From Macrostomum lignano (taxonomy: Eukaryota): 64,000 nt of DNA. Location of the stretch: NCBI GenBank assembly GCA_002269645.1, contig NIVC01001204.1, positions 1 to 64,000 of the forward strand, given 5' to 3'. Positions 1 to 48,509 of this stretch are shown in pieces. A program made the position numbers and the translations under genes. A model generated the notes under the pieces. It saw only the letters and a program-made list of their open reading frames with translations, did not search any database and was not told the DNA's origin. Position 1 is the stretch's first letter. The number at the start of each line of letters is the position of its first letter.

Positions 1-17
1 GAAAGCTAAGAAAAATA

Positions 18-1430
18 TTGATCAGTCAAAGAAACTATCGACGACATACAGGAAACCCAAGTGCAAAAGGTTTGGGCAAAATTCCAGAAGCACCACAGAT
101 ACAGCCGCAACCACAACAACCACAACCACATCAATCACAACTAAAAGTGACAGATAACATTTTTGGACCAGTAGAGCGTGTCGAACATGATGGGAAATAT
201 GTATTTGGAATAAGTATGTGGAGAAAAAACATTTATAATGAACCAGTGGAATATTATATCGACATAAATAAGAAACATATTTCTGTTGTCAAAGCTCGGA
301 AACTAAGAGCATTCCTTTCACAGAAACCTTACTGATTTATGACCAAGAACCAAGAGAGAATCTCGGACAAACAGCTAAAGAACTATAGAGATCTAGTGAC
401 TTTTTTCTCTTGCTAGAGATATAGAAATACTAAAGGCCCAGAAGTCTGAACTTATGTATGATAACGGTGTCACCTGACTAATTCAAAAAGTACAATCACT
501 TTAAACAATGGTTCGATTTGCCAGATCAGGCGGAAGTCATAAAATATCTAGAACAACAACACAACAGCAACACAACACAACCACAGCAGCAGCAACATTT
601 ACAGAAGTACAGGCAACTGAAAATGCAGATCCGACTCAAGTAGCTGAATATAAGAAACAAAACCCAACAGATTGGCAACACTTAGAACAACACTCTCCAG
701 ATCGAATGAAACAGAATCAAGCAAAGAGTTTTCACACCTCAACAAAGACAGGCACCACATGACAGTTCCATCTCTGAAAGTGAGTAGTCTTTTGCATCAC
801 CTCCCCAGCAGCCACAAGCCCAACCAACTCCACAACCTCAAGACCAACCGCCCTCAACTGGAAAAGGAATAGCTGAAATCTACAAGCGAGTAGCGTTCTT
901 CTAGGAGCAGCAAAGACCGGAATGAAAGATGAAAATAGAAAAGAATTTGTCAACATCCTGGACAAAATGCTTGAGAGAAAATACATCGATAAGAGGGCGA
1001 GAGAGCTTCTGCTTTCGCGGTTCAACAAAAAATAATTTATTTCAAGTAAAAATGCCGATTATTTTTGAGAAACATGACAAATACTATGACAAAGAGGAAC
1101 TTAATCTCATTAAACGCGGATCTGGACTTTTCCCTGCAGGCCACTATCCAAGAAAAAGAACGCTCTGGGAATCGGCCTTGCCGATTTGATCGCTCAGGGG
1201 GCCAAGATTTTTAAGGTCATTGGAGAGAACAAAGAGAACATCAAGAACGTTGCCGAAGCGGCTGGCAGTGTAGCCACAGCAGCCAAAAAGATAAAGGATA
1301 CTGTAACACCTAAACAAGAGATTCAACCTCCACTGGCCCCGCTGGCCCCAAACCAGACAGTGTGGACCCTGCAGTCTATGAGAAGATGAGAGCTAGCATT
1401 AAAAAAGGAAGTGGTTTCAAATTTGACTAA
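18..1430 (+). CDS. Frameshifted Polinton ORF(s), probable core/structural protein(s)
   Basis: Chain of same-strand ORF fragments (18-335, 508-762, about 900-1189, 1186-1389). The chain ends IKKGSGFKFD* at 1430 and contains LGAAKTGMKDENRKEFVNILDKMLERKYI and KRGSG. True gene boundaries are unresolved. Confidence 0.45.
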
Positions 1431-1476
1431 AGGTACTTTCCAGGGTACAAGAAATGTAAAGGTACAAGACTAGTCT

Positions 1477-1639
1477 CAAAATGACACATCTAAGTCCCAA
1501 AATGACACATTAAGTCCCAAAATGACACAATTAAGTCCAAAATGACACATCTAAGTCCCAAAATGACACATCTAAGTCCCAAAATGACACATCTAAGTCC
1601 CAAAATGACACATCTAAGTCCCGAAATGACACATCTAAA
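1477..1639. repeat. 21-bp tandem repeat (caaaatgacacatctaagtcc), about 8 copies, between Polinton ORFs
   Basis: Directly visible. Confidence 0.95.
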
Positions 1640-1677
1640 TTATTTATTATTTAATTATTTTTTTCATCATAGAAAAA

Positions 1678-2476
1678 ATGGACTTTTCAAACGACTTCAA
1701 TCCTCACTGGACGCGTAATCAGATTAAGTTTTCTCATCATGAGTCAATCCGAGTCACTTCAGATGCATTGTTGTTGGTTCATCAGGTTCAGGTAAAACAT
1801 TCAGAGTCTTTAACATGCTTCTTAGACCTGGCTTTATCGACTATGACACTCTGCACATCTACTCTCCCACACTGTATCAAGATGAGTATAGAATGCTGAT
1901 TGCAGGGCTTCAAACAAGCTGAACAAAGAGGACATTATTGCATGTTTTAATAACCAAATGAGCCTTCCCAGTAACCCTGAAATTGTAGCTGCCGAATATG
2001 CAAAGCACCTCAAAGACAATGAAAAATGGCAGAACATTAAAGTGTTCACCTATGGAGATCCACAGGCTGATCCAAAGACCAAACTTCTACCCCAACCAGA
2101 TGAGCTAGAAAAGGGGAGAAAGCATTTGATCGTCTTTGATGATTGTATGACAGGCCCACAGAAGCAGATAGAAAACTATTTTACAAGAGGGCGACATAAC
2201 AATTGCAATGTAATTTACATTGCACAGAATTGGTTCGAGCTCCCGAACAAAACAATTCGCGGGAACTGCAATCTGATTCTCCTGTTTCCAACCATTCCAC
2301 AGGACAGGTTAAAAAGATTTTACAATGAGGTCATTGCGCCTGCCTATTTCATAAATCCAACAAAAAACTCAAGCAGAAAGATTTCACAAGAGGAATTCGT
2401 TAATCTTTGCTATGACAAGTGGAATCAGCCTTACCAGTTTGTGATTATCAGCAAAGAAAAAAGAACTGTAATTTAA
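1678..2476 (+). CDS. A32/FtsK-like DNA packaging ATPase (two -1 frameshifts)
   Basis: Walker A CIVVGSSGSGKT lies at 1776-1799 in a shifted frame. Walker B HLIVFDD and the motifs FTRGRHNNCNVIYIAQ and IRGNCN are in ORF 1958-2476. Adding one base near 1750 and one near 1915 restores the frame. Confidence 0.9.
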
Positions 2477-2492
2477 AATTTGCTATTAAAAG

Positions 2493-3228
2493 ATGTCGAT
2501 AAACTTTGCAGGTGAATCCATTTCTGGCAACAGCGCTCTTACATCAGCTCAGATATCCATCCTTGACAGGCGATATATCAACAGCGACGAAAAGATCCCA
2601 GAGATCAAACTGAATAAAAACAGACTGAAAGCCTAGAGCGCTCCATGCACCAGTTGCAAATAAACATGGAAGATCTCAGGCTTAAAGTAGCTAGGCAGAA
2701 GTTTGAAAGTGATAAGCTTTATGTGCCGTTGTTAAACGCAAACTAATGAACTTAGGTCAGAAATAACTTCGATAGTCTCGCTAATCAACGGCTTGAGATC
2801 ATCAGTTAATCTTCTGGGAAATTCCACTGATAGACGGATGCGTATTCTTGAAGGAGAAGTTTTCACAAACACAGCTAAAGTAAATAATTTAGAAGAGTTC
2901 ATGACTCAGTCAACATCGTTGCATGATCGAATCAAAAGAAAGACTTGAAGCATTAAAGAGAAAGGATGTATCACACAGTAGCTATCTAAACGGAATGTAT
3001 AGCTCTTGGGGTAAAATAATAAGGAGGCTTGATCGTCTGGAGAGAACACTCAATCTTCGTGATATTGCTATTGATGAAGCAGAATCTGCTGCTCGTCCGG
3101 TCATGTCTACAGATCGAGTAGAAGGAGCTCTGGACCCCGCCGGAGTAATCCGGCACGCTCTCAAACGTCAGCCGCCCAGCCGCTGCCTGCTGGACTCGCG
3201 ATCCTCCGGCGTCACGAGAGCCGCCTAG
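2493..3228 (+). CDS. Fragmented Polinton ORF, coiled-coil-like, function unknown
   Basis: ATG 2493 (MSINFAGES…) followed by broken helical or charged frames up to ORF 2923-3228. Confidence 0.35.
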
Positions 3229-3320
3229 ACAACCGGCGGTGCAGATGGAATTATCAAAAAGAAAACAGATCTTTCAACCGGATAGTTTTATAATTTTTTT
3301 CTTTTTTTCTAGAGAAAAAA

Positions 3321-4056
3321 ATGGCCCAACAAAATTCTCTATACGATCAGTCTCATACGTTGAACCTAAAATACCGACAGCACCAAACTCAATGGCACCG
3401 AATTCGAACACACAAAACCTGGCACCGAATCTGAATGCACCTCAATATGAGCAACAAAAACTCTACCCCGTCATTACTTGTAACTCTCAGCAGTTTCGAC
3501 TAGTGGAGATTCAAAAAATGCGCGATGATCTTGAAAAAAATATTTTCCACAACACAAAGAAAATTAAGCGCTATGACAACCACTGTAAATTTTTCGACTA
3601 CAGCAATATGATTCTAGGATCTGTGTCTGTTCTATCTGGATCTGCTGCGCTGTCTCAACGTTGCCAGTCATCACAGCCCCAATCGCAATCCCGCTCGGCT
3701 CTGTGGGTGCTGCATGTGGACTTATTTCAGCAATTACTGGAGCATTAGCGCGAAACAGGCGAAAAAAACTAAAGCAGCTACAGGAGAAGCAAGTAAAAGA
3801 GAAAGGGGTGCACACTTCAATCATAGGGTACATTTCAAGGGCAATCGAGGATAAGTTCATTTCAGAGGATGAGTTCAAAACCATTCAGGATCTTTATGAA
3901 CAATCAATTCGAATGAACTTGAACATGGTCGGTACTGATGACATGAGTCAGCTGAAAATGAACTCGAGAAAGTTCTTCAACATTATGTGGAAAGAAGGAC
4001 AACGAGAAGTACAACGAGGAATGCACAATGAACCCTATGAAACACAGCAAGAATAA
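3321..4056 (+). CDS. Conserved Polinton membrane-active protein (two hydrophobic helices; 'GasderminX'-like)
   Basis: FRLVEIQKMRDDLEK…hydrophobic hairpin (ILGSVSVLSGSAAL / PVITAPIAIPLGSVGAACGLISAITG)…ISRAIEDKFISEDEFKTI. -1 shifts near 3362 and 3655. The family name is recalled, not searched. Confidence 0.6.
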
Positions 4057-4487
4057 TTTCCTTGTAGGTCTTTCGTGTTTTGGTCATTGCATACAAAACA
4101 GTCATGCACAGCTCACCGCAAATATCACTGCTAAGACCTTGAGAATAAAGTCTGAGCGATAAATTTTTTTATTATTTTTCCCTTCATATAATTTCTTAGC
4201 TCTTCTGGTACTGCCGTCCCATAGCTATCGAAGTAATAACACTTGTGCTTGCGATCGGGATCAATCACCCAGCAAACCCAATGAGATCCTGGCTTATCGG
4301 TGGTGTCAAAGTTCATGATGCCGCATTCCTTTCTTAGAGGAAAATCAGGCAGAGTGTCCCTCATAAATATTCCTCTAAAGTTTGGGATTTCCAGTTCGTT
4401 AGCCAAATCTTCAAGAAAGTTATTTGTCGTCATTTTTATGTCATTTTTTATGAGGTTTATTAAACTTTCTCTCAAACCTAAACCCAA
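4040..4487 (-). CDS. Adenain-like (C5) maturation cysteine protease, frameshifted near the C-terminus
   Basis: GSHWVC (His) and YYFDSYG (Asp). In the shifted frame, LQGLSSDICGELC supplies the Gln and Cys. Probable ATG at 4433; the 3' boundary is approximate. Confidence 0.88.
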
Positions 4488-4497
4488 TATCCACCTC

Positions 4498-7400
4498 CTA
4501 AACCCAACCTCCTAAGCCTAATCTCCAATGCCCGAACGATAGACTGTTGATATTGTCATCAAAAATGAATCTCTTGTTATCTGCACCTGACAGTCCAATC
4601 TTCTTTTGCTGAATTGTGTGAATAATATGGTTTTTAGATTGTAGCTTTGAGAACTCATGTGATGTCTTTTTGTTGCAATTCAAGGCGTCTCTGTATTCAG
4701 CTTCATTAATTTCCTTCCTAACACGCGTTTCGGAATTCCCTTTGATTTTTTAATTGGGTCTGACGACTCACATTTTACAAAATAGGACTTTGCTCTCAAC
4801 CCAATGAATTCAGTGATTATGTCACCAGCAATCTCGTCCTTCATTTTCCCAATCACTTTCTTGTTAGTGGCGTCAAACACTTGATCGCCATTCTGTGTCC
4901 TGCAAGATTCATCATACTCAGACAAGTCAAACAAATCTTTTTGCTGCAGCATGTCCTGATAAATGTCTTCTGTTTGAATGTCCATAATAAAACTGTCTGT
5001 GTCAGTGTACAAGAGTTTCATTTTATCCTTGTACTGCTGCTTCATGCCATAGAAGAATGGTACATCAGACGTTTTGATTCGTCGAGAACAGTGACACCTG
5101 TATAGATCGGCTTGCGCAGCGTCACCTTGGTTTTGTAAAATATGATCACACCTAAGTAGCTATTAAAGATATGGAGTTCTTTGAATGTTGGCTTTGACAT
5201 ATTTGCCTGAATAACAGCAGGCTCTGATGAGGTAACAAGTTTCAGGTTTGTTCTTTTCCGCTCATTCTCAAGAGTCTTGCCATAGACAGAGTTGTTGGCC
5301 AACTTAAAGAGGTTCTTGTCAAAGTCGTTGGTTGCTTTGGTCCTAAACTGGGTGTTCTTATCAATGTAGGGTTTCATCCACGCTTCCTCTGTAAATGTAA
5401 GAGCCCTGTGAACTTTGGTGACCCTGCAACCAAGTGAGATAAAATACTGAAGCAGTTTGTAATGGATTTTGTAACGTGTCTTGTTGTTTAGATTCTGTGT
5501 TAGTTTCTCTGTATGTTCTTTTTCTGTTCCTGACAGGTGCCAAGTTCCATTATTATCATTGGGAGTTTCGATTATTTTCGGGCACTTGATGTTCTCTGGG
5601 AAGGGTGGAAAGTCAGAGAAATAGTCGTGAAGCTCTGGTGGAATGTAAACATCAACCTCATAAATGGCAGCCAATGAAAAGTCCCACTTTAGTTCTGATG
5701 AGGGTAGCCATCGAAAATCTCTAACTGGAAGATCTTGACTCATCGCCCACCCGTAGAGATTATTAGCGTCCAAGTAAGTAATGTAGTTTGAGGGCTGCTC
5801 CTTATTGTAAGATTCAATGTAGGGATTGTTTGCTTTTGCATACCTGTTAACGCAAATTGAGATCCCCCTCGCTTTGACGATTCGACAAAATTGTACATGT
5901 CAATGTCTGTAAGAAGTTCAATGTACCAATCTGGATCTTGATCCCATTTCATTTTAAGCAAAGATTCCCAGCTAGTGGCAGGCAGAGACACATAATGTGC
6001 TGGATCGAGGCCATATGCTGTGTACCAGGTGTATCTGAAGGTTTCAAACACATCGGCCAGCAGAAACACATCTGTGAAGAGGTAAAGCAGGTGATACTGG
6101 AAGAAGTTTTGACAATTAAAGTAATTATAGACATGCTTCGCGTGCTCATAGTCTTTGTCAGAGATTCCAGAGTCTGTTAGCTTTGAAAAGAACTTCTCCT
6201 GTGGTGGTAAACCTTCTTCAAATACGTGATACCCAGTAATATTTTCATAGGGGTAGAAGCCTTTGGTTCTCAGGAGTTTAAATGATTCATCACTGTTGTT
6301 AATTTTACTTGCAAACATCTTTGTATATGTACATTGTTCATCTTTTAGATTCTTGCTTAGTTCGTCTAGACTGGCAGCTAGAAATTGATATGAATCCTTC
6401 AGTCTTATTTTACCTTCACTCGAACCGATACCTTTACATGAATTATCCTGTTTAACATCAACACACTTAAACTTCTCCTTGTTCTTTGCGATGCAATCAA
6501 GGTGTATGTCTGGAATCATGCCGATTTTTTCAACTATTAAATGCATGTCATAGTTCTTTGCGTTGTGACAAAATATCGTTAGATCATGAATGTTCGATTT
6601 TAGCTTTAGATTACAGGTGTTATGCGCTGCACCTCTAAATTTCCCAGTAAAGTGGCAGTGGTCCCTAACGGTGGGGTTTTTAATATTAGTGCAAGTTAAC
6701 TGTTTCCTGCAGATGTGGCAATGAGTTGCTGATAGGAAATTGCTTTCATCCTCCTCAGTCATCATTATTGGAACAGGTTGAAGGGTGCTAATCACTTTTT
6801 GCAACTCTAACATTCTGGCAATAAACTGCTCCACACACTGCTCTCCAAAGAAATAATTATACTCAACAAGTCCTTTTGTATTAATAAAGGCATATGCTAC
6901 TGAATTGGGGACATGTTTTTGAGTTTGAGTTTGTTTTTGTGTTTCCGGCACGATTGAGCATTCGAAATCAGCATATACAACAAATGGGAGCTTCTCCATC
7001 TTGTGATAGTTCTTAAACCGGAGATACTTCTCTTCAGCTGAAGGAAGAGAGCAGTTTGTTGGGTGATCCTCGCATGATAGTTCATGCTCTGCTAGTTTTT
7101 CAAAGCGCTCAGGTCCACTGTAATGCTTAAGGCACAAGCGGCAGATGGCAACAGCCTCGTGATGATTATTCAACTGCTTGTGAATGAGTCTTGAAAGATC
7201 TTTAATCCAAACATAGTGAGCCTCCTCTAGTAAATTACCAATCACTAGAAGATCCACTTCAGTCCGCCTTTTCCCCTCAGGATCTAAAACGTCTTTGCTA
7301 CATCTGACCGGTTGAACTTTCTCAGTTTTTTCACTCCACTCAAAGACTGTGATTCTAATTTTGTTATTAAACACTTCTTCTAGCTTTGGGATCTGAGAGA

Positions 7401-8342
7401 TCGCCAAGCCTCCTTTGTCAAACCTGATTCCCTTCTTTTCGCATTCGATGAGATAGTAGTTGAAATAATTTTGATAATTTGAGGTTCTTTCGGGGTGGTG
7501 AGGTACACTAAAAAGTGCAGAAAGAACTGCCCATAGAGCACAGCAATTGTCTTTATTTTTAACATTTATGCAAGCTTTTTTGCCGGCTAGCTTGTGTGGG
7601 AGCTCTATATAAGAGGAGGCTTTAAGTGGGTCATATTTCATGACCATGACAGTCGCTCTTTGAATCCCTCCACGACCCATCCGGAACCTCTGGATGTAAA
7701 CGCTTCAATTTTCTTATTGACATCTTGAAGGAAAGGATCCAGTGTGTCTGTTGGGGTGAATGGCTTTGCCTTTGTTGTCATGTAATACTCGAGATGCTCA
7801 GTGGGTTTCGCAGGCATATAAAACGCAATCTTGAATGATATCTGTAGTTTAAAGGTCTTGCGTGTTTTGAGTGTGTGATCAACAACTGATTGGATGCTGT
7901 CTTTATAGTCGTAGATGTTTGCGGTGGTATCCTTAATTGGGATTGTGTACTCTATGTAATGTTCTGTAAACTTCCTCTGTGCAAACTTAATCTCTTCAAT
8001 GGCAAGCTCCGACTCTTTTAAATGGATTAATTGCTCTAATTTCTCTTGTTCCTGCTTATTTTGTGGGTACTTTGCTTTTTCACCAGTGAGAGTTTCGTAT
8101 TTGTTAACTAAGTTGCGACTCCTCTCTTGGTGTTCCTTTGCAGGACTTTTTATAGGCGCATACTGGTTGGATTCTAATTGTTTGATGATTTCCGACTGTT
8201 TTTCATAGCTTCCCAGGTGACCAGGGTCGGTGTTGAACTTTTGTTTGCATGCTTCTCTTAGTGAATTACTTTTGTCTTGAAATGAGACGCCTTTTGAAAA
8301 ATATTTGTTGACTAAATCTTTTGCTGGATTGGCTTTTGGCAT
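4498..8342 (-). CDS. pPolB: Protein-primed family B DNA polymerase with EndoVII-like insert; four frameshifts
   Basis: Exonuclease motifs YADFE, HNAKNYD and YLFTDV. Insert CHIC…DHCHFTGKFRGAAHNTCNL. Polymerase motifs LDANNLYG, KLANNSVYGK, YTDTDS, KKVIGKMKDE and KSKGI are spread over 5 consecutive ORFs. Confidence 0.96.
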
Positions 8343-8484
8343 TTTTTCTCTAAAATAAAAAAAATTTTTTGAGGGTGACCACCCTGATAGAAAAGTTGAA
8401 CTGTTTCTACATCCTATAAGTAGCGCTAGGTTTATGAAGCTGGATAAAGTGGGGTTTTAAACCTCATCACATCCGCATTCACAT

Positions 8485-8948
8485 TCACATCCGCATTATT
8501 GTAAACCCAGCATTGTGCAGTGTCATGATGGCTTTGACAATGTCAGACTTGCTTACAGAATTTTCATGCTCACAATCATCACAATCATCACGATCATCAA
8601 AATCCGGGCAGCCCTCTCCTGCCTTAATTGTTATACCTTTGTCTCTTGCAATCTTTTGCAATTCTAGCTGGTGGGCTCTATCATTCCCAGCTTTAACAGC
8701 AGTTGCTACACCTCCAGCTACACCACCTGCGGCACTTACAGCGCCTGCAATAATTGGATAAGAGCTGCTAATGGTAGGATTCCTCCTGACTTTTCATCTG
8801 TGATGCTGTGTCTTTGTTCATTACATTGAACTATTTGCTGCACGGGATCGACTTTTACTTTGGCACCTTTTATTGATATAAGACCTGGTCTCTTTGATTC
8901 AATGATTTTATTGAGTTTATTGATGGTTCTGGTTTCAATCTTTGCCAT
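8485..8948 (-). CDS. Adenovirus pX-like small core/membrane protein (one -1 frameshift near 8757)
   Basis: Reconstructed sequence: …EKSGGILPLAALIPIIAGAVSAAGGVAGGVATAVKAG…KAGEGCPDFDDRDDCDDCEHEN…MRM*. It resembles the adenovirus pX GG-ILPxLIPxIAAAIG segment. Confidence 0.65.
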
Positions 8949-8965
8949 TTTTTTATTTTAATATT

Positions 8966-9987
8966 TTAATTAATTTCTGTGTCAGCTGGTATCACTAGGA
9001 GTTCAGCTCTAGTGAATGACCGCGTGGGGGATTTAGGGTTAAAGGCTTGAGATAAAAAGTAATACTCTCCAGAGTCGGAGGTAAAATGTCTGTCTATTTT
9101 ATGTACATCAAGGCTGAAGTATGGATCTGTAGCTCTTCTTTTAGTGTCCTTCTCTAGCTCTCCAGGTAGATATAAAAAGCGTAGAAACTCAGAGTTTGTC
9201 AGTATGTATGGTGATTCAACTCCTGGAAGCTTAGGGTAGTTCGAGGTGTGTTTTGTGTTGTGTGTGTTTTGTGGGGTTGTCGTGTTGTTGTCTGTTCTAT
9301 GAGATGCCTTAAGTTCGACAGTGTCTTGTTTAATTGCATGGGACGGTTTCAATCCAGTCATACGTGTGACTTCATTGTTCAGTTGCTCTATAACAGTGGG
9401 GGAGTCTTTCTGTCCACTTGGTATAGTACTGCCCCCGCACTCAGTTTGAGTTCTTGCGCTGTCGGCTTTGTGAATAGCCTCTTGGCTAGAGTTAGATTGA
9501 ATCTTTCCATAAAAGCCTGGTCTCTGTGCAAGTCTGTTCTGCCATAGCGAATCTTCGTATTTTTCTTTTCCATAAGGGATTTGACTGCACCCATGAATTC
9601 CTTACCCGGGTCGGTCATAAAGATTCAGTTTTTATAAATATCTTGGAGTGCGGCTGCAACAACCTCTGACTTCTTCGTCTTGAGTGGGCGAGCTTCCTTA
9701 TATCTGGAAGCAATGTCTGTAATTGTGAGAGCATACTTGTAGCCTGAGTCATTGGGGAGAAACAGAAGATCTGCTTGGTGCGCCTCGTTAGGTTTATAAA
9801 TACTGAAATGGGGCCTTTCAAATTTTACTGGTGGGAAATAGACTTGAAAGACAGCCTGCTTAGAGAGCCATTTTTCTACTGTAGCTTTTGGTTCCTTACT
9901 CAGCTCCATGAGTTTACTAACGGCATTTTTGCCTACAAAGAATCCTTTGTCGCTGTAGTAGAGTTTTTTAATTTTCTGATCTGTCAT
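8966..9987 (-). CDS. Retroviral-type (rve/c-int) integrase, disrupted
   Basis: HQADLL (D), TDPGKEF (D) and ERFNLTL (E), then NNEVTRMTGLKP. In-frame TGA at 9625-9627 and indels near 9435 and 9400. Confidence 0.92.
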
Positions 9988-10017
9988 TTATTTAAAAAGA
10001 AAATTTTAAATAAAATA

Positions 10018-10497
10018 ATGCAACGCTCTGGTGGTAAAATAGATTCACATGGACTGATAGAAAAGCTTCCTCATCCAAACAAAGGCTGGACAGTTCCCGG
10101 GTACAAATATTGCGGGCCTTTGAATCCACTTGAAATACAGCTGGATGGTAACAACAACCCAAATCCTGGGCATGAGCCTGTGAACGAGCTAGACTCTGTC
10201 TGCATGTGGCACGACGTTAAATATAGAGATTTTGCTGAGGAGAAGAATCGCTGGGACAAAGAAATGCTCAGGAGACTCGACAATATGGGGATTTCAAGCG
10301 GATTTCGTGAGTCGATTGCTAGGAAATTAGTCAAGGCGGTTATTTATAGTAAGGCAAAGTTGGGATTAGGAATGGGCGCTGAGGGTGGGTGCACGGGGAG
10401 AGAGGGCGGACGCACGGGAGCAGGGTTTATTTTGTGTGCTCCAAACAATGAATTAGGAAGACTGTTGAAAGAGCTGGGGGTTGAGAGAGGCGCTTGA
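10018..10497 (+). CDS. Parvovirus-VP1u-type phospholipase A2 (Polinton PLA2X-like)
   Basis: Ca-binding loop VPGYKYCGPLN and catalytic segment LDSVCMWHDVKY, followed by KLGLG. The ATG at 10018 is divergent from the integrase ATG 30 bp away. Confidence 0.85.
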   Translation: MQRSGGKIDSHGLIEKLPHPNKGWTVPGYKYCGPLNPLEIQLDGNNNPNPGHEPVNELDSVCMWHDVKYRDFAEEKNRWDKEMLRRLDNMGISSGFRESIARKLVKAVIYSKAKLGLGMGAEGGCTGREGGRTGAGFILCAPNNELGRLLKELGVERGA

Positions 10498-10825
10498 GTC
10501 GGGAAAGATTATTCGCAGCCAAGCGCAACAGCTGCATTTCGAAAAGGGGTGGGGTAACTGCTATTTGCTGAGGGAGCGCAGCTTTTGCGAATGTACAAGT
10601 TCCACGCGTGCTTTCCTTTCCTTTCCTTTCTTTCCTTTGTATTGCGCACGCCAAATAACGAATTAGAAAGACTGCTGAACAGTTTACATTGATAAACAAC
10701 TGAAAGACTGAAGCGACAGATTATAGTCGCTATATAGTTTATTAGTTTATTATAGTTTTTCATGTGGTAAGCAACGTGGCAACAACAGAGCATGCAGCAG
10801 AAGACAGAATGCCTATCTTAGGTAA

Positions 10826-11129
10826 ATAATAATAATAATTGATTACACCTGCCCAATGGGCAGATGTGCAACCGACAGCTCAGCCGCAGCTATTGCGCGG
10901 CGCATCTGAAGGCTGCGTGCGGCTGTTCAGTCCAAGGACTGGGGGTCGCCACACACACCCTCAATTACTCCAGCTAATGCTGGTACCCATTTTACAGCTG
11001 GGTGAACTGAAGCAATGCGGAGTAAAGTGCCTTGCTCAAAGACACAGATTGTTGCAGGGGATCGGGAATCGAACCCCAACCTTCATTTAAGTCGTGAGTC
11101 CGACGCCCTAACCACTAGGCTACAACCCC
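10826..11129 (-). mobile_element. tRNA-derived SINE
   Basis: Minus-strand head ggggttgtagcctagtggttagggcg…ggttcgattccc carries A and B boxes. Central domain is Deu/Nin-like and the tail is (ATT)n. A second, diverged copy is at 59.7-59.95 kb. Confidence 0.8.
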
Positions 11130-11260
11130 GTATGTGCAGGGTCTAAACTATGCAACAATATAAAAGGTTTCTGGGTGAGCGCCTGCTTTTTCTCCCCAGT
11201 CCCACCACACTGAACACCCCGCCCAGTTCTGCCTGTCTCTTTTTTTCTAGCCTCCGCAAC

Positions 11261-12795
11261 TAGTCAAACAGCCACCTCAGAAAATGAAACCGCTGGTTTC
11301 AAATTTTGAGGTGGGTGATCCTCTAAAGACGCTTGTGTCTTTCTTTTTCTAGCCTCCCAACCCCCCAGAGAGGGTCGGGGGGTCTGGGTAGACCAACTCT
11401 CAGGCCAGCCCTTCTCTCACCCGTCTTGCCCCACCGCCTCTCATTCCAAGCCTGTCCTCTGGGTGCCTCTCTTCGCAACTAGCTCTCTCTAAGCCCTCCT
11501 AGTCAAACAGCCACCTCAGAAAATGAAACCACTGGTTTCAAATTTTGAGGTGGGTGATCTGAGTTCTGCACTGCTTCTCTAGCCTCCGCAACTAGCTCTA
11601 CGCTCTCCCGAGCTCATTCTATTTTTAGTCAAACATAACACTAGCGATCTCGCGCTGGGGGTAGAGGGGCGCCTGGGAATTTTGAGTCTCCCGTTGTACT
11701 GAAATCTCCTTCCCCTTGAGCTCCTCTCCCTTTCCCTTCCCCAGCAGTCCGTGCCAGAGCATTGGGCTCTCTTTGCACAGGGGCGCCACCTCAGAAAATG
11801 AAACCGCTGGTTTCAAATTTTGAGGTGGGTCTACACTGCTGCGCTATCCAGTTCTCACCCGCCCTGCCACTCACTGCATGCAGTCGCGCATTCCGCCACA
11901 AGTCCCCCTTCTCTCTCACCCACCCTCCCTCTGCAATTCACTTCTGTGCAGTGCAGCGCCAAAGCCAAAAGAGAATTGCAGAGGGTTGAGGGTTGATCCG
12001 GGCGGGAGGGGGTCTTTCTTTTTCTAGCCTCCACAACTAGCCGCTCCGTTTTCTTCTGCGCTCTCCCGAGCTTAGTCAAACAGCCACCTCAGAAAATGAA
12101 ACCGCTGGTTTCAAATTTTGAGGTGGGTCTACACTGCTGCGCTATCCAGTTCTCACCCGCCCTGCCACTCACTGCATGCAGTCCGCGCATTCCGCCACAA
12201 GTCCCCCTTCTCTCTCCACCCACCCTCCCTCTGCAATTCACTTCTGTGCAGTGCAGCGCCAAAGCCAAAAGAGAATTGCAGAGGGTTGAGGGTTGATCCG
12301 GGCGGGAGGGGGTCTTTCTTTTTCTAGCCTCCACAACTAGCCGCTCCGTTTTCTTCTGCGCTCTCCCGAGCTTAGTCAAACAGCCACCTCAGAAAATGAA
12401 ACCACTGGTTTCAAATTTTGAGGTGGGTGATCTCTTCTATGCTCTCCCAACGCATGGTATGGGTTTTATTTTTAGAACTTACGTCTACACTCTACAAGGT
12501 ACAACCTTCTGGGTGATCCCTCCGTTTTCTTCTACGCTCTCCTAGTCAAACAGCCACCTCAGAAAATGAAACCGTTGGTTTCAAATTTTGAGGTGGGTGA
12601 TCTGAGTTCTGCACTGCTTCCAGCAGAAACATTTTTCTACACTGTCCCAAGCAAATTTGCTATTTTAATCAGACACCCACCTCAGAAAATGAAACCAGTG
12701 GTTTCAAAATTTGAGGTGGGCAATCAAAATGGCATACTTGTTAAACAACCACCCCAGAAAATGAAACCAGTGGTTTCAAAATTTGAGGTTGGTGT
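11261..12795. repeat. Eight copies of a ~45-bp imperfect palindrome (ccacctcagaaaatgaaacc-nnn-ggtttcaaattttgaggtgg) within duplicated spacers
   Basis: Copies at about 11272, 11511, 11786, 12084, 12384, 12554, 12678 and 12751. Segments 11786-12083 and 12084-12383 form a near-identical ~300-bp duplication. Confidence 0.93.
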
Positions 12796-12887
12796 CAATA
12801 TTAGTAATAAAAAACTATCCAAGGATAACTTGCTATTATTATAGCTTCATGAGTTGCTAAATAAACAATACATTGCTAATTTAAAAG

Positions 12888-13511
12888 TCAAAACAACAAG
12901 CCTTCGTCCACTTCCTGTTGCAGCATCGCAAGGGCCTCTGGCAAGTATGCAATCATCGACTTCAGCTTGTGCAGGGACATTGCAGATCTTTGTAGCACCG
13001 GATATTTCTCAGCTTGGTCAGCCAATTTCATCAGAAAGTTGGTCCACTGGCTGGTGAACGGTGCACGTCTTTTCAGCTCGTTGAACTGTTCCTTACTGAG
13101 AACCCGCTCCATTCTCAGAAAGATCCTGCCGAGCTGTAGGCCGTTTGCAAAGCCATGCTTACCATGCCGTTCAACTAGCTTATGAAGGTTGGCAATCTGT
13201 ACAAGCACTGCGTCGATCGTAAATGTTCCCTGCGTAAATTCTTCTAGAGAATGCACTGGCACAGGCTCACTGTTGGTTTTGTAGGCCGTGCGCAACTCGT
13301 CCAGAGCCTTGCCGATTTGTAATTGCTTGTCGGTAGTTTTCGCTAGCCGTCCATTGATAGTTGGCTTCACGATTGGTGACCGAGCAATTGCATTGTATTT
13401 ATCGGCCCAAACATTCCAGTTGTCGAGATCTTTACTATAAAATACAGCCTTTATGAAGTTATCCAGATTTTGGATGTAAACGTTGTTGCCTGCTTGCATT
13501 TCTTCATCCAT
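12888..13511 (-). CDS. Intact 207-aa helical protein, probable Polinton accessory or regulatory gene
   Basis: Uninterrupted non-repetitive ORF with gccATGg. The C-terminus LGRIFL…FTSQWTNFLMKL…KYPVL…LSLHKLK is reminiscent of DUF3102-like helical domains (recalled). Confidence 0.7.
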   Translation of the reverse strand: MDEEMQAGNNVYIQNLDNFIKAVFYSKDLDNWNVWADKYNAIARSPIVKPTINGRLAKTTDKQLQIGKALDELRTAYKTNSEPVPVHSLEEFTQGTFTIDAVLVQIANLHKLVERHGKHGFANGLQLGRIFLRMERVLSKEQFNELKRRAPFTSQWTNFLMKLADQAEKYPVLQRSAMSLHKLKSMIAYLPEALAMLQQEVDEGLLF

Positions 13512-13628
13512 GGCAAGATCCAGAGATTAAGCTAGTCAAAAATAAGAAGTTGCTGGCTCAGCGAGTTGAGGCGGGGCGAGGCGAGGCGGAGCAGGCTGGG
13601 TGAGGCGAGGGGCGATGTGAATCGGCTG

Positions 13629-13636
13629 TATATATA
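13629..13636 (-). promoter_or_regulatory. TATA box of the 207-aa ORF
   Basis: TATATATA lies about 120 bp upstream of the ATG, next to a GC-rich gaggc-repeat leader. Confidence 0.45.
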
Positions 13637-14061
13637 CCATTGGTGTGGGCTCGGGAATCCACGGATTCTCTTTTTGTTCTAGAATTTTCTAGAATTCGAA
13701 TTCTAGAAGGGAAACCCGCAGATTTTCTACTTATAGCCAGTATTTTCTATTAATGGTTGATTGGGGTTGCCTGGGAAAGATCTAGGAAGACTGCTAAAAG
13801 AGCTGGGGGTTGAGAAGGCTGGGGGTTTAAACAAGGAACTAAATGGGCGTTTCTGAAGCTAGGCAAGGGATCTTCTGAGCTAGTTAAGGCTTGAGCTGGG
13901 CAAAAGCTTTTTTCTCTATGCTGCACACGCCGCTCGCGCTATGACAAGAAACAGCTGCCATACCCATTCCGCTATCACCCACCCGCCACACAGCAAAATA
14001 CCATGCGTAAAAATATATATTAATGCAGTCTTAAAGTCTTAAAGCGTATTGTAACGACATT

Positions 14062-14301
14062 CTACAATTGCCTAATGATTTCTGCAAAGTTATAGTAGCT
14101 GTCGTAATCTTTTACGTAGGTTACTCCATACTTATGAAACCAGTGTCTTTGGAGAGCTAGATTAATATTAGGGACATTGATATCAACGTTGGGCCAATAT
14201 TTTCTCATGTACTCGCTGCATTCAAGTTTGCATTGGTACTTGGATTTGTACAATGGATTAGGCTGAGTATAATAAGAACCTGGAGAGACAACTGGAAACA
14301 T
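14062..14301 (-). CDS. Small Tyr-rich hypothetical ORF (79 aa from ATG 14301)
   Basis: Open non-repetitive frame with aaaaATG context like the other Polinton genes. No recognisable domain. Confidence 0.35.
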   Translation of the reverse strand: MFPVVSPGSYYTQPNPLYKSKYQCKLECSEYMRKYWPNVDINVPNINLALQRHWFHKYGVTYVKDYDSYYNFAEIIRQL

Positions 14302-14509
14302 TTTTATTGAGAATTTAATTTTTTTCAAAGGGTAAGGACCCTGGGTTAGGGGATTTAAAGTTTTAGGGATCTGGTTTCGCCGCTTCGGATTGAATGTGGG
14401 CCCCATGGGGAGAAGAATGCAGATTTTTTTTCTGATTGTTTCGAAGATGCTATGGGTGGATGTTGGTGGATGATGTCAGTGTCAGTGAGCATAACAGGTG
14501 TCCACTGTC

Positions 14510-14725
14510 TGATTCTGTCGGGGATAATATGGATGGATTTAATAGGATTATGTTCGAAGTTTTCAGAGCAAGTGCGGCCCCTCCCCTTTTTCATGATTCT
14601 GTCAGGGATAATATGGATGGATTTAATGGGATTATGGAGGACGTTTTGTGAGCGAGTGCGACCCCCCTTTTTTTCTGATTCTGTCAGGGATAATATGGAT
14701 GGATTTAATGGGATTATGGAGGACG
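14510..14725. repeat. Three ~90-bp direct repeats (gattctgtcagggataatatggatggatttaat…), possibly within the Polinton TIR
   Basis: Repeats are directly visible and lie just before ccttctact at 14757-14765. Confidence 0.8.
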
Positions 14726-14959
14726 TGAAAAATTTTGTCCCAAAAGCCCCCTCATGCCTTCTACTAAAGTCCTTACTTTCTTAATAGACTTGCCTAATAT
14801 AGACTAGATTACAAAGTTCTACAAGTTTTTATAGAGCCCAAATTAGGCATGAGAGATTAAAAAGTTAACTTACGCTTTTTCATAAACTGTAGCATCGCTT
14901 GTCTCTCAAGACGACGTTTTTTTCTTAGATTGACCACGCTTCGTAGATCGTAGCGACCG

Positions 14960-15018
14960 CGTTGCTGCTGCTGCTTCTTCTTCTTCTTCATCTTCATCTG
15001 CTGCTGCTGTTGTTGCTT

Positions 15019-15051
<33 letters not shown>

Positions 15052-15078
15052 TTCCTCCTCCTCCTGCTGTTGTTGTTG

Positions 15079-15123
<45 letters not shown>

Positions 15124-15145
15124 ATGCTGCTGCTGCTGCTGCTCC
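14960..15145. repeat. Mixed trinucleotide microsatellite (CTG/GTT/CTT)n
   Basis: Directly visible. Confidence 0.95.
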
Positions 15146-15504
15146 TCTTGAGGCTGTTGCCCATCGTGCCGTTGCAGTTGCAGTTGACAATTGTATGGAT
15201 ACGAGTACGGCCAAATCGGATAGGGGTGTGGAAAAAAAACATCGATGGGTATGGACAGAAGCCACTGAAGAAGTTCATTAGAGGAAGATGAAAGGAAACG
15301 AGAAATTGAAAGAAAAGAAATTAAAATGAAATAAAAAAGTAAAAATGAAATGAAAACAAATAAGATGAGTCGAGAGTAAAAATTATTTTGAAAAATGTAA
15401 AAATGAGAAACTGATAAACTGTGTGAGGCACAACTGAGAAAGTTTCAGAGCTGTCGCTGAATCGATCGATGCATTTTATTCTTTATTTCAAACGCAGAGC
15501 TACG

Positions 15505-15645
15505 TTGCTTACTCATCTAACGAGTATAATAACTTCAAGTGCACAAGTCCTACACTGAGTCCTATACTGAGTGTAGGAGTGTAGGTTATACGAGTGTAAG
15601 ACTTGCGCACTTGAAGTTATTATAACTACTGAGTTGCGCAACAAC
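15505..15645. mobile_element. Small foldback/MITE relic
   Basis: 25-bp inverted repeat with 1 mismatch: 15525-15549 vs 15600-15624. Confidence 0.6.
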
Positions 15646-15699
15646 CCCCTGACCGCTCTATTTTAGTTATTTTAGTTTAATTGATTGACTGAGAGGTGA

Positions 15700-17306
15700 G
15701 TGTTGCTATTCACGTGGTTATATTATCAACATATTTGAATAAGAAGTCAGTGGCTGCGTGTGTTCAATCGGACCCTGGCTCTCACTGTAGCAGCCAAAGA
15801 ATTCAATGCTTTAAATCGGTATATTTCAAATGCAAACTGTTCCACGAGTTTTGAACTTTCAGTAAAAAGATTTATATTGCTGGAAAGATCTTGCTGCCCT
15901 GAGTTCGGGATATAAGTTGTTTGCTTTAAATATGAAAGCGAAAAGCACAGCATCCAAAAAACGATTTCCATACTTTTAACTTTCTTTAAAGATGGTGCTC
16001 ATTTTTGTGAGACGTAGCAGACAAAGTTCGAGGGTTCAAATTCTAATTGCTCAGTGTGCTTTAGTGGGGGGTGGTCGGTCGCTGTGTATTGGAGGGTTGA
16101 TTTAGATTGCGCGATCATTTTAATTGAGACTCTTACTGACTGACAGAGAAACGAATTGCGCTATCAATTTGTTTTATTATCTCTGCCTTTCAATAGGCTG
16201 CTCTGTGTAATAGCGTGGCAGTGAAATGAATGAATAAACTTGAGCGCCTCCTTAGCAGACAGTGAATGTGACACTTGATACTTAAATGCTTTAGAACTGT
16301 ATATTTCAAACGCTAACTGTTCCTCGGATTTTGAGCTTTGAGAGAAGAGACTTATATTGCTAGAAAGATCTTGCAACGCTGAGTTCGGGAATATAAGTTG
16401 CTTGCTTTAAATATGAAAAATAAAAGCAAAGCATTTAAAAAACGATTTCCATACTTTTTTATTGTGCTCACCTTTGCGAGGCGCGTGCTTTAGTGAGGGT
16501 CAGTCGCTGTGTATTGGAGGGTTGATTTAAATTGCGCAATCTTTTTTGCTAACTTTAACTGATACTGACTGACTGAGAAATCGTTTGTGCAATCAATTGG
16601 TTCAAATATTTTATTATCGGCACCTTTCAACACCCAGCTCTGTTCAGCTCTAACCCTAAACCTAACCCTAAACCCAGCAACTGAATCCTGACACTTGAGT
16701 TCTGTTTGAGGGAGAAAATTTCGATGGTGTTCAGTCTCACGGAGAGGATTTCGATGGATTTGGAGAAACGCTGGAGGATGGTATTCTAAGGGGTGCTTCT
16801 AATGGAAATCTTTGGATAGGTGATTCATTGGGGAATTCCATCGATGTGGGATTTTTTCGATAGAGGTTTCTTTGGGGGATTCTTTAGATGAAGGATTCTT
16901 TCGATAAAGGGATCCTTTAGATATGGGATTGTTTGGATGGGGATTCTTTAGATGGGGGTCATTAGGACATGATTCTTTAGATGAGGGGATTCTTTAGCCA
17001 AGAATTCTGTTGATAGGGGAATATTTGGATGGGAGGTTTTTTTGGGTGGGGATTTTTTGGATGCGGGATTCTTTGGATGGGGATTATTTGGAGGGGGTTC
17101 TTTAGATGGGATTTTTTGGCCAATTTTTTATGGGGGATTATTTAGATAGGAGATCTATAGACTATTTGGATGTGAATTTTTTGGATGGGAATTTTTTGAT
17201 GGGGGATTCTTTGCATGTGAGATTCTTTATATCGTGGATTTTGTGGATGGGGAAAACTTTGGTTGGAGTTTGGACGGAAAGCCCCAAGGGGGTTGGAATT
17301 GGCTAG
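15700..17306 (+). mobile_element. Helitron-like non-autonomous element 1 (5' end uncertain)
   Basis: 3' hairpin cccc-aa-gggg, then CTAG at 17303-17306. Contains an internal ~400-bp duplication (15800-16190 vs 16260-16620) and a module shared with elements 2 and 3. Confidence 0.5.
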
Positions 17307-19965: not shown

Positions 19966-20391
19966 TGTCCATCCGAACCCCCCGCCTTATGTAAGGACCA
20001 GAAGGGGCTGTACTGCGAATGAGCGCTGGCGGCCTGCGATTCCTTGTTCAACTTTATAACCTTTGCTATGCCGTTTTTCGGGGAATCAGTTTCCCCGCAT
20101 CCCTATCTAACGTGTGCGAGACTTCCAATAAATATCTGTAGCCGCCGCAGCTGCTACAAGTCAGTCTGCCGCTTTCTTCAAATCCGCAAATTGAAAAATG
20201 CCGAGAAATGTAAAACAAACCGTTTTTTCATGCGCACCCCAAGCAGCAAAATTCATTGTTTAAATCGGTCGCATTTCGAATTCTTCCGTTCAGCCAATCT
20301 CCGACCGGGAAGGAGGGGAGGCGGTTTAATTTGGCGGGCCAAACTTGACTTAAAAACATTTGACTGTTCTCAATTCTTTTCTATTTCACCC

Positions 20392-22853: not shown

Positions 22854-22890
22854 CTATCAGGACTGATGGCGGCTCCGTTGGCACCTGGTC

Positions 22891-23530
22891 TTGAATACAG
22901 CCCCAGCTCTCACGCTGACCAATGGAGACCGCATCGCGGTGTGCGAGGACTTCCGGTACCTCGGCGCCCTGGTGATGAGCCCCGATGCGATTGTCTCCGA
23001 CAGGAGGAATCAGGCCTGGCGCGCCGCTCACCTCCTCAGGAACGTTTTTAATTCAGCTGCCAGAGACGACCTGAAGGTGCGCCTGTTTCGCACGGCCGTC
23101 GAGCCGATTCTTCTGTACGGCATGGAGGCTGTGCCGCTGACCGAGACGCGAGAGCGAGCCCTGGACGCGCTTTACCGATCGCTGCTGCGCTACGCGCTGG
23201 GCGTGCACTATCCGGATCGCCTGCCGACCAACGCTCTGATGGCCCGCGCCGGAACTCCGCCCCTGAGTGCCATACTGCGCCGGCGCCGCCAGGCTGCTGG
23301 GCCACTGCCTACGGACCCTGGGTCGCGGCGCGCCCGTCCCTCTGGCCCTGGCCATGCTGCACCGGCCGACTGAACAATTGCGCCGTGGCCAGGCTCGCAC
23401 TGCCACCCTAATGAACTGCCTCATTGCGGACTTGCAGGCGCTTGAGCTGACCCCTCAGGCTGCTGCTGCCTGCCCCTCCCGCCTGTTCTGCGAACGCGTG
23501 CGCGCAAGGGGCCTCCCCTCTGCGTCTTAA
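22891..23530 (+). CDS. RTE ORF, 3' part (RT thumb and C-terminus), one frameshift near 23290
   Basis: NTAPALTLTNGDRIAVCEDFRYLG…RLFRTAVEPILLYGMEA…LRRRR/RLLGHCLR…LPSAS* continues the minus-strand ORF. Confidence 0.9.
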
Positions 23531-33067: not shown

Positions 33068-33559
33068 TCAACATGAATCTGACCACAGGTCCTCTTCAAT
33101 GGTTGTCGACACGGGCTCTGCCTTCCTCAATCCAGCGCCCTTGCCCTCCGCAGTAGAAATCTTCATGGCCGCGTCCAAAGCCTTTCTGCTCTCTTCGAAC
33201 TCGATGTCCGTCCAAATGCACCACTGACGGCGATACACATGGCGCATGTGGTGCTGTATTGACGAAAAGAAATCCTTTAATGTCCCAGCGGAGTAGCGAT
33301 CGTTCCTCTTTGTCCTGACCTCCAGAATGAAACTTTTCATTAGAAAGTTCAAATCGGACTTCGAGAACTCATCTGCGTCTTTCAGTACCATGAGCGCGGG
33401 TCCACCGTCGGAACACCAGAGTACTTTCTTCGCCGCATGCCACTCTTGAAAAGTAGCAAACATCCAGCGACATTTCTTTAGCGTGTTTGTTGGAACCGCT
33501 CCTTCGATGAGTGAACTGACTTCTTCGTCAGTCAGATTGACAAATTTTTCGGTAGCCAT
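33068..33559 (-). pseudogene. Crypton-type tyrosine recombinase N-terminal fragment (ZMYM/KCTD1-like)
   Basis: NTLKKCRWMFATFQEW…FILEVRTK…YSAGTL…IQHHM…FEESRKALDAAMK…GKG…KAEPVS…EEDLW. It is truncated before the catalytic domain. Confidence 0.75.
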
Positions 33560-46419: not shown

Positions 46420-48509
46420 TTAAACAGTTCCGTAGATCTTTTTCTCGAGTTCAAAGTCCGACTCTGTCTCCGATTTCACTTCGACTCCAGCAAGCGGCTC
46501 AATCTCCGTGTCGGTTTTGATAATGTCAAACCAGCGCACAAAATCGGCACCCAGACACTCCTTGAACCAGGTGTCAGCCTTGAACGCTTCCAGGGCTTCG
46601 GGGAAGCTATGCGGCAGGTCTTTAGTAGTATCCACCTGGTCAAGCCGGAGATCGCGCTGGATTCCATCCAGTCCAGCGAAGAGAGTCGCCGCCAGAGCCA
46701 GGTAAGGATTGCAGGCGCTGCTCACGATGCGACTCTCGACGCGGCTGGTCTCCTTGCGCTGCGTCTGCAGCCGGAACGTCGTCATTCTGTTGTCAACGCC
46801 GTAGTCGCACTTGGTTGGCGCCCAAGGCGTGTGCAGCCGTCGGTAACAGTTCACCGTTGGCGAGCTGACCGCAGTCAGTGCTCGGGCGTGGTGAAGCAGC
46901 CCAGACAGGAACTGCTCACCTGTTGTGCTCAACTGCTTGCTGCTACTGTCGGCCGCGTGAAAAATGTTTGTTAAGCGATTCCCGCTGGTCCACAGCGACA
47001 AGTTCAAGTGCCAGCCGTTGCCCGTCTGTCCAGGCAGACGCTTCGTCATGAATGAGGCCTCAAAGTCATGTCGACGCGCTGTCTCCTTGGCAATCAGCTT
47101 GAATCGGAAGCCTTCATCGACAGACTCGATGCCCCACTGAGGCAGCAGGTTAACCTCAACCTGACCGGAGCCGTACTCGCTGTGCATGACCTCCACGTGT
47201 AGTCCCGCTGCGCTACAGCTACGCTCCAGATCGGTGAGGAACGGCTCGACTTCGCTGAACACGAAGGCGTTGCCGTACTGCACCGGCTGCCAAGCCGGCT
47301 GACCGTCCTTCAGCTTGAAGAGTCGAAACTCGATCTCGTAGGTGGCGAGAACTTCCAATCCGATGTTGTTCATTTGTTCGATGGCTTGCTTGCAGATGTA
47401 CCGCGTGTCGGTCGGGTATGGTTCCCCAGTGCCTGCTACGAACATGTTGCAAAGCACCTGTTGGAAAATTTAGCACGGAGTTATTTTATGAATCAGATAT
47501 CATGTTAAACTTAAAATGAAATGAATCTTTTATTTGTTTATTAATCTTTTTTATTAGTTTCTTTGTCCAACAGCACACAATAAAAGGTCCAGTTCCGCGA
47601 TCCGCACATGCACGCGGATTAAACAGTTCCATAGATTCCTTAAATTCCGAGTTGATGAGACAAATCACAAGGAGAGAGTGCCTTAATGTTGTCAACACAC
47701 AATGCAAATTCAGCAGTGGTGACACCAATGCTTTGTCCCCCACCCCACCTTGTGAACCGCTATGGAAATCAATACTTTTGCTTTAGGGTGCCAACATTTA
47801 ACGCTTTCGGCGCCAAAATGAGTTCCTGCCTGAGGCGCCAAAACTGAGTAGCCACCAACAAGACACGGGCCTACCTGAACAAGTGGCGCCACCAACAAGC
47901 CACGGGCCTACCTGAACAAGTGGCGCCACCAACAAGACACGGGCCTACCTGAACAAGTGGCGCCACCAACAAGACACGGGCCTACCTGAACAAGTGGCGC
48001 CACCAACAAGACACGGGCCTACCTGAACAAGTGGCGCCACCAACAAGACACGGGCCTACCTGAACAAGTGGCGCCACCAACAAGACACGGGCCTACCTAA
48101 ACAAGTGGCGCCACCAACAAGACACGGGCCCACCTGAACAAGTAGCGCCACTAAGACATGGGCCTACCTAAACAAGTGTAGTGGAGAGCATATGGAGAGA
48201 GTACTGTATATATTCAGTTATCAAATGAAGCAGGTATACTCACATCGCCGTACTGGGCCCCGATTGAGCCGTGTAAGTTCGCAGCGTGCTCCAGTCGGCC
48301 TTGACGATGGCGTTGCCGCAGCCGGAGTCGGCAAGCATCCGCGTCACTGCGGTACCCTGACAGGCCATGCCCAGCATGCCCTGGAACATGGCTAGGCCGT
48401 GCTGTTCGAACGCTTTAAACGCTCGCGGCGTCAGAATCTTCGACCGTGCGCAGCCGTTGATGTCGGGAAAGAGCAGCCTCAGGTACTCGACTCCGTTAAG
48501 TTGATTCAT
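46420..48509 (-). CDS. GSI-type glutamine synthetase-like (lengsin-like) gene; exons 48509-48244 and 47457-46420
   Basis: YLRLLFPDINGCARSK, YEIEF, HSEYGSGQVE, FMTK…GNGWHLNLSLW, PTVNCYRRL, DNR, RVESR…NPYLALAA…AGLDGI and LPHSFPEAL. Donor GTGAGT and acceptor ccaacAG. The splice phase needs one extra base (a G lost at ATG|GT would explain it). Confidence 0.9.
47850..48175. repeat. ~37-bp intronic tandem repeat
   Basis: gccaccaacaagacacgggcctacctgaacaagtggc, about 8 copies. Confidence 0.95.

Follow-up and report, generated by a model that had tools for sequence, protein, structure and literature searches.

The alpha adintoviruses described by Starrett et al. (2021; PMC8502044) combine an OTU-like region and a PF03175-type pPolB with an rve integrase, an FtsK/A32-type ATPase, an adenain-like protease and a parvovirus-type PLA2 gene, and they have animal hosts. 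The same features recur in an element at the left end of the DNA analyzed here, a window of 64,000 nucleotides (nt) from the flatworm Macrostomum lignano (assembly GCA_002269645.1, contig NIVC01001204.1, positions 1 to 64,000 of the forward strand). The first 10.5 kb of the window were identified by profile and relative searches as the core of a Maverick/Polinton, the genes of which look shattered as assembled. An earlier note on this DNA had attributed this look to long-read errors and had proposed that the element is young, nearly intact and possibly virion-competent. We consider it probable that the element is young and that most of its single-base breaks are assembly errors, with an integrase that is truly damaged.

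The element differs from the alpha adintoviruses of Starrett et al. (2021; PMC8502044) in that hexon and penton were not seen in the window, and in that the weak pX signal comes from a gene of its own instead of the C-terminus of PLA2. Neither the main text of that paper nor one of its supplementary files contains a flatworm term. With the vertebrate Mavericks (Barreat & Katzourakis, 2021; PMC8097293) the element shares intronless core genes, modules on opposite strands, a flanking accessory region and possibly an (ACT)2 end motif. The gene order differs, however: here the ATPase and pPolB lie on opposite strands, and integrase, pPolB and protease share one strand. The intact class of that study has eight open reading frames (ORFs), terminal repeats and a 6-bp duplication.

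Polinton-class insertions related to the Orthopolintovirales have been reported in genomes of rhabditophoran flatworms (bioRxiv 10.1101/2025.04.19.649669), in a study whose main text does not name Macrostomum. Insertions of this class in rhabditophorans are thus already known, and the present element is an added case rather than one new in kind. We found no published Polinton in Macrostomum in a survey that did not extend to subscription journals, Repbase and bioRxiv supplements, which may already list the family. Two environmental relatives, P0274 (integrase, 74% identical) and P0346 (ATPase, 75%), have full-length open genes that are colinear with the pieces in the window; they lie on contigs of 1.4–1.5 kb and are too distant to be sibling copies.

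A shattered appearance has also been described for endogenous Polinton-like viruses of protists, which were artificially fragmented because of long-read error and because polishing failed on repeated viral DNA (Bellas et al., 2023; PMC10120064). There, the artefact was demonstrated by re-mapping reads, whereas the choice between error and real indel at each site of the present element is inferred from internal controls in the assembled sequence rather than from reads, and one lesion, a gap in the integrase, looks real.

Gene content, class and extent

The following features make up the core of the element (those supported by relatives were compared with homologous proteins; the codon model is described below):

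1..1035, plus strand: truncated 3′ portion of a long ORF that runs off the left edge of the window (seen by three-frame translation and by codon model; low confidence)
1052..1430, plus strand: small ORF with two apparent one-base-short breaks (codon model, identical calls at three penalties)
1472..1638, plus strand: 21-bp tandem array of 8 copies upstream of the ATPase gene, used as a local error gauge
1678..2476, plus strand: A32/FtsK-type packaging ATPase with two one-base-short breaks and no stop (relatives, Walker motifs)
2493..3293, plus strand: ORF in which about four breaks, some in each direction, are apparent (codon model)
3321..4056, plus strand: membrane-protein gene with two apparent one-base-short breaks (codon model)
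3983..4433, minus strand: adenain-like maturation protease (Peptidase_C5, E = 0.005; adenain 1avp, E = 0.036)
4498..8342, minus strand: pPolB (PF03175 above cut-off; relatives)
8485..8948, minus strand: pX-like core protein gene with an apparent one-base-short break near 8760 (Adeno_PX, E = 0.031, below cut-off)
8966..9987, minus strand: rve (DDE) integrase with a six-codon in-frame gap, a stop and two one-base-long breaks
10018..10497, plus strand: PLA2 gene of parvovirus type, intact, in divergent orientation to the integrase gene (PF08398, E = 4.8e-13)

The earlier identification as a Polinton/adintovirus is borne out by these genes. pPolB scores 35.8 bits against PF03175 (cut-off 25.8); its long relatives share 31–38% identity among the 120 proteins listed, and 149 of 150 pPolB representatives share 34–44%, the remaining one being a 227-amino-acid (aa) piece at 66%. 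Relatives of the ATPase found by database search (58–75% identical) carry Pox_A32, and those of the integrase, up to 74% identical, have rve above cut-off; a piece of the integrase itself also matches rve. The polymerase, Walker A/B and DDE motifs, searched with patterns that we take to be diagnostic, are present in the natural, unrepaired pieces; the catalytic motifs had earlier been described as conserved. The two protease matches are weak and concordant; the adenain match aligns the catalytic His, and the His/Asp part and the Cys part lie in different frames. The pX-like gene has no match in PDB, and the PLA2 ORF contains the PLA2 domain and no pX match. Only sub-threshold matches with two transmembrane segments were obtained for the membrane-protein gene, which may resemble the gasdermin-like genes of adintoviruses. 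Neither the small ORF at 1052..1430 nor that at 2493..3293 has a family match, and the ORF at 1..1035 has no Pfam or PHROGs family above cut-off and no relative.

OTU-like Cys and His motifs occur at 7551 and 7218, ahead of pPolB, an assignment by motif rather than profile, with patterns that we assume to be characteristic. Because such motifs precede a PF03175 polymerase and a PLA2 gene is present, which is how alpha adintoviruses are defined (PMC8502044), the predicted proteins place the element among the alpha-type Mavericks/Polintons (adintoviruses), with a pPolB, an A32-type ATPase, an rve integrase, an adenain-like protease, a pX-like gene and PLA2.

The range given earlier, 1678..9987, does hold core genes, but the element continues beyond 9987 with the intact PLA2 gene and also crosses the left edge of the window. 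A mere 30 bp of pure A/T sequence (9987–10018) separates the starts of the divergent integrase and PLA2 genes; in one relative, P0295, PLA2 and integrase are fused in a single protein of 493 aa.

Profile scans identified no capsid family among the frames scanned, in an element cut by the left edge of the window and with short-piece scans that are insensitive. No pair of terminal inverted repeats joining the two sides was found in 1–17000, nor was a target duplication of the element seen in the window; the left end lies outside. By the definition of an intact Maverick in PMC8097293, under which all core ORFs are open, this copy as assembled is not intact, since the ATPase, pPolB, protease and integrase genes are all broken. 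An exact look-up found 1 of 15 proteins of the window in the protein collection, and a scan of GTDB with the ATPase alignment gave 52 pattern matches, none of them a relative.

Breaks in the reading frames

Breaks were located by frameshift-aware alignment to relatives and by a homology-free codon model trained on other genes of the element. The model was run at a penalty of 7, since a penalty of 5 gave seven false calls in pPolB; at 7 it recovers 9/9 relative-defined events and makes zero calls in PLA2.

All eight relatives tried for the ATPase (65–79% identity) place two one-base-short breaks near 1750 and 1910, matching those reported earlier near 1750 and 1915. For pPolB, all ten relatives tried indicate that one base is missing at each of four points (near 7665, 5860, 5060 and 4720) and that there is no stop, again as reported, and the order of the frames is identical by tblastn for the 12 top-scoring of 269 relatives. 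Further one-base-short steps had been proposed in the membrane-protein gene (two), the protease (two) and the pX-like gene (one). The codon model, applied to these genes without relatives, agrees with them, mostly within about 25–40 nt of where they had been placed, although in the protease a single step in the other direction reads equally well. The statement that the lesions are mostly 1-bp indels holds at eight relative-anchored breaks and fails at a six-codon gap in the integrase.

We counted 13 breaks in seven genes (7738 bp). The count leaves out a +1 call near 3996, in the tail of the membrane-protein gene where the frame is open to 4056, as well as both calls in the ORF that starts at 1052 and every call in those at 1–1035 and 2493–3293. 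All six breaks in the ATPase and pPolB are one base short, as are 11 of the 13 overall (P = 0.011 at even odds, 0.058 at 60:40), or 11 of 14 with the call near 3996 included.

The association of breaks with short runs, also proposed earlier, is marginal: summed run length at the eight localized breaks is 28 against a background of 20.0 (P = 0.010), but a run of at least 2 is present in 79% of 6-nt windows drawn at random from coding sequence. Since breaks can be placed only to within a few bases with relatives at 40–75%, and since a short run falls within most such windows anyway, homopolymers alone make a weak argument.

Internal controls

A host gene in the same window serves as a control:

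46420..48509, minus strand: two-exon glutamine-synthetase-like gene with one one-base-short break in exon 1

This gene clusters with three named M. lignano proteins. The break, which had been placed at the splice donor, is present but lies inside exon 1, about 15–20 nt upstream of the donor. Apart from the break there are zero residue differences from PAA70620.1, and there are four from PAA91471.1; exon 2 also matches A0A1I8GZ00, and both PAA70620.1 and A0A1I8GZ00 keep the frame across the break. In the protein collection the product is 341 aa long against 434 aa for two named counterparts, a truncation in line with the exon-1 break.

Lesions of like kind occur in tandem copies. A 300-bp tandem duplicate (11785–12428) shows two single-C gaps and zero substitutions in 300 bp, and 2 of 6 complete scored copies of the 21-bp array at 1472–1638 each lack one C. 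All four gaps in these repeats are thus of a single C, and single G/C losses are the error pattern described for PacBio consensus sequence (PMC8574707). Two published M. lignano assemblies, one of which may be the source of this window, rest on PacBio data, with 64% and 32% of bases error-free by REAPR (PMC5730564). A further control from other tandem arrays (1 gap in 3768 bp) was not used, as it is biased low, comprising the 7 cleanest of 15 distal rows; other rows are gap-rich (e.g., 9 gaps in 38705–39669).

Decay by substitution is not apparent. Among 154 conserved columns of pPolB we found 5 mismatches, against a median of 3 in 70 sampled relatives, 29 of which have at least 5; in the 67 strictest columns there are 2, a value at least matched by 10 of the 70. 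A random substitution here yields a stop 4.4% of the time, and eight real frameshifts would predict 1.0–3.5 point stops at an assumed 3–10 substitutions per frameshift. No point-mutation stop was seen in the four genes with relatives (P = 0.35–0.03).

The integrase lesion

The integrase had been singled out as an exception, with an in-frame TGA, an apparent small deletion and two +1 shifts, and all three were found. The stop lies at 9625–9627. Two one-base-long breaks fall within 9390–9440 with 9 of 10 relatives, the tenth preferring a single step in the other direction. The linker ahead of the second catalytic Asp, in which the stop falls, has 7 codons, compared with 13 for 13 of the 16 relatives and 12 for two (one was unmatched); relative to these, six or five codons, respectively, are absent in frame from the stretch between the first two catalytic Asp residues. 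We judge this gap, with its stop, most likely to be a real deletion. If so, the copy is probably integrase-dead and would be mobile only with the help of a sibling.

Elsewhere in the gene, the C-terminal linker (9230–9300) has about 16 extra low-complexity codons, in frame, relative to the three closest relatives.

Assembly error or decay

Long-read error is in our view the best explanation for most breaks, given the host gene, the tandem copies and the lack of decay; it does not extend to the integrase gap, and the run context adds little. An alpha adintovirus-class Maverick/Polinton would have entered the flatworm germ line fairly recently. From the literature on the family, its protein-primed polymerase would copy the element and the rve integrase insert it, the ATPase would package DNA into a protease-matured capsid, and PLA2 would aid entry. 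Long-read consensus would then have dropped single bases, often G or C, and short-read polishing, poor on repeated or thinly covered DNA, would have performed worst toward the left edge of the window. The six-codon gap and stop would be a real deletion that leaves this copy dependent on a sibling for movement.

Several observations weigh against this interpretation. The element has 1.7 breaks per kb (13 in 7738 bp), whereas the coding sequence of the host and of the RTE element has 0.3 per kb (2 in 6850 bp, excluding false calls in open frames: one in the low-complexity start of a SPRY gene, six in a mucin-like repeat ORF and two in the 5′ part of the RTE element). This excess of about six-fold (P = 0.007; 0.038 with relative-anchored breaks only) means that the host error rate is insufficient and that accuracy must be supposed to have dropped locally as well. 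Density falls from left to right (3.1 versus 1.2 per kb), although not significantly (P = 0.08); the rise toward the left edge would fit thinning coverage near a contig end, if the window starts at one. The ORF at 1–1035 has about ten codon-model calls in both directions and an apparent in-frame stop near 335, and that at 2493–3293 about four calls, also in both directions. None of these had been counted earlier, and the two ORFs look more damaged than the rest, an uncertain impression given by the codon model. The sole break found in the RTE element, near 23300, steps +1 and not −1 as had been claimed. When break intervals are widened by 3 nt, the background for summed run length rises to 23.8 (P = 0.10), and only 3 of 6 one-base-short breaks have a G/C run as the longest run touched (background 20%). 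Polymerase slippage likewise favours runs. In the integrase, the 18-nt gap is unlike a homopolymer error and adjoins clean DNA (the first 360 nt of the gene and PLA2), and the two one-base-long breaks do not resemble the insertion pattern in PMC8574707. No sibling copy was found for comparison in the protein searches, the best relatives being 74–75% identical and those of pPolB 66% or less. Finally, a short interspersed nuclear element (SINE) may lie inside the element, if the latter extends further right.

It is unlikely, though not negligibly so, that the breaks are real and that this is a dead copy in which slippage indels have outpaced point mutations since the integrase was lost. The excess of breaks over host coding DNA, the probable integrase deletion, the mixed directions and apparent stop in the two other ORFs, and a possible SINE insert that has no target duplication would all be expected of such a copy, and 96% of vertebrate Mavericks are degraded (PMC8097293). 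On the other hand, decay of this kind would have had to leave zero point-mutation stops and ordinary pPolB conservation, to break the ATPase and pPolB six times in one direction, and to coincide with a like lesion in a host gene whose named counterparts are in frame and with a 300-bp duplicate that has two gaps and no substitution. Somewhat less probable is that everything is artefact, including the integrase gap, produced by thin coverage that left the consensus to one or two noisy reads; the copy would then be intact and perhaps virion-competent, with capsid genes left of the window. Every catalytic motif is present, PLA2 and a 207-aa ORF to its right are intact, break density climbs toward the left edge, and artefactual stops in such elements have elsewhere vanished on polishing (PMC10120064); but an 18-nt in-frame loss differs from single-base run error, the clean PLA2 gene and first 360 nt of the integrase indicate that the stretch is not uniformly poor, and neither a capsid gene nor a pair of terminal repeats nor a target duplication was seen. 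The suggestions that this copy is nearly intact and possibly virion-competent are therefore unsupported. It is improbable that several near-identical copies were collapsed or mis-polished into a blend whose lesions belong to no single molecule. The DV1 line has duplicated chromosomes and one assembly contains 180–312 Mb of duplicated sequence (PMC5730564), and reads from multiple copies are reported to pile up and produce false frameshifts (PMC10120064). The RTE element, which is presumably multi-copy as well, shows a single break in about 3 kb, however, and no sibling protein above 75% identity was found. A young element with mostly erroneous breaks and a truly damaged integrase thus remains our preferred interpretation.

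Region to the right of the core

The following features lie beyond PLA2:

10828..11129, minus strand: tRNA-headed SINE-like insert (tRNA-like head 11057–11129, E = 0.051, below gathering score)
11260..12795, no strand assigned: cluster of repeated 45–60-bp hairpin units including the 300-bp tandem duplicate, candidate part of the element
12888..13511, minus strand: intact 207-aa ORF, possible accessory gene (no break called)
15525..15630, no strand assigned: hairpin of 100 bp with a terminal (ACT)2 motif, no more than a candidate for the right end

The SINE-like insert has a 73% identical copy at 59704–59912 and no target duplication at its ends. A 38-bp repeat is common to the 3′ end of PLA2 and 13783–13819; this suggests that the element reaches beyond the SINE, and if it does, this copy has received an insertion. 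The hairpin unit occurs in about ten copies (z = −6.2 and −4.9), partly inside the duplicate, and the cluster may represent either an array within the element that resembles an origin or the termini of some other repeat. Look-alikes of the 207-aa ORF (0.93) are mostly unnamed viral and bacterial proteins, and its structural model is all-helical at low confidence (pLDDT 44). The (ACT)2-ended hairpin was not accepted as the right end of the element, as the motif is at chance level: one site (15625) was seen in 10.5–20.4 kb against 2.6 expected.

Upstream of the 207-aa ORF (12888–13700) are TATA-like, CCAAT-like and GC-rich boxes. Two further possible accessory genes are a short minus-strand ORF at 14062–14301, which scores positively in the codon model and has an A-rich leader resembling those of the element's genes, and an open frame encoding poly-Gln at 14857–15444.

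Candidate trans-splicing sites

A T-tract, AG, an A-run and ATG precede the ATPase, membrane-protein and pPolB genes (1658–1680, 3296–3323 and 8340–8364), and a similar T-tract with TAG lies 20 nt before the 207-aa ORF. The pattern, which was chosen post hoc, has 3 matches in the 64 kb, and it did not occur in any of 200 simulated sequences of 10.5 kb. In the host, trans-splicing affects about 30% of genes, and the top host motif ends in CAG (PMC8629364). It is conceivable, but very improbable, that these sites are acceptors for the host spliced leader, which would bring polycistronic transcripts of the element into trans-splicing. The post hoc choice weakens this idea, as does the TAG ending here; given the CAG of the host motif, an AT-rich viral leader is the likelier reading.

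Other features of the window

An RTE-like long interspersed nuclear element occupies 20382–23548 with its 5′ part inverted. It encodes an endonuclease and a reverse transcriptase in an open frame of 827 codons on the minus strand (22853–20410), with the 3′ part on the plus strand (22895–23520); it has a (TA)n tail and is flanked by a target duplication of 10 bp (20382 and 23539). The 2.4-kb inversion fits twin priming. The window also contains a host-side SPRY-domain exon (60496–61521), a QRICH1-domain piece below cut-off (33068–33568), a mucin-like ORF with a 54-bp repeat (50201–51712) and an interstitial (TTAGGG)n tract of about 10 units (19280–19334).

Implications

Counts of degraded endogenous viruses from long-read drafts may be inflated by assembly error, a concern that is not new in kind, and the model of the host glutamine-synthetase-like gene appears to have been shortened by a like error. 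We regard it as unlikely that M. lignano harbors a young, still-active adintovirus family that is masked by assembly error, has intact siblings elsewhere and possibly makes use of the spliced leader. If true, this would be a live animal Polinton in a transparent, transgenic animal, in which particles and extrachromosomal DNA would be open to view. Virions of animal Mavericks were unobserved as of 2021 according to Barreat & Katzourakis (PMC8097293), and a young family in a laboratory flatworm would be a place to look for them.

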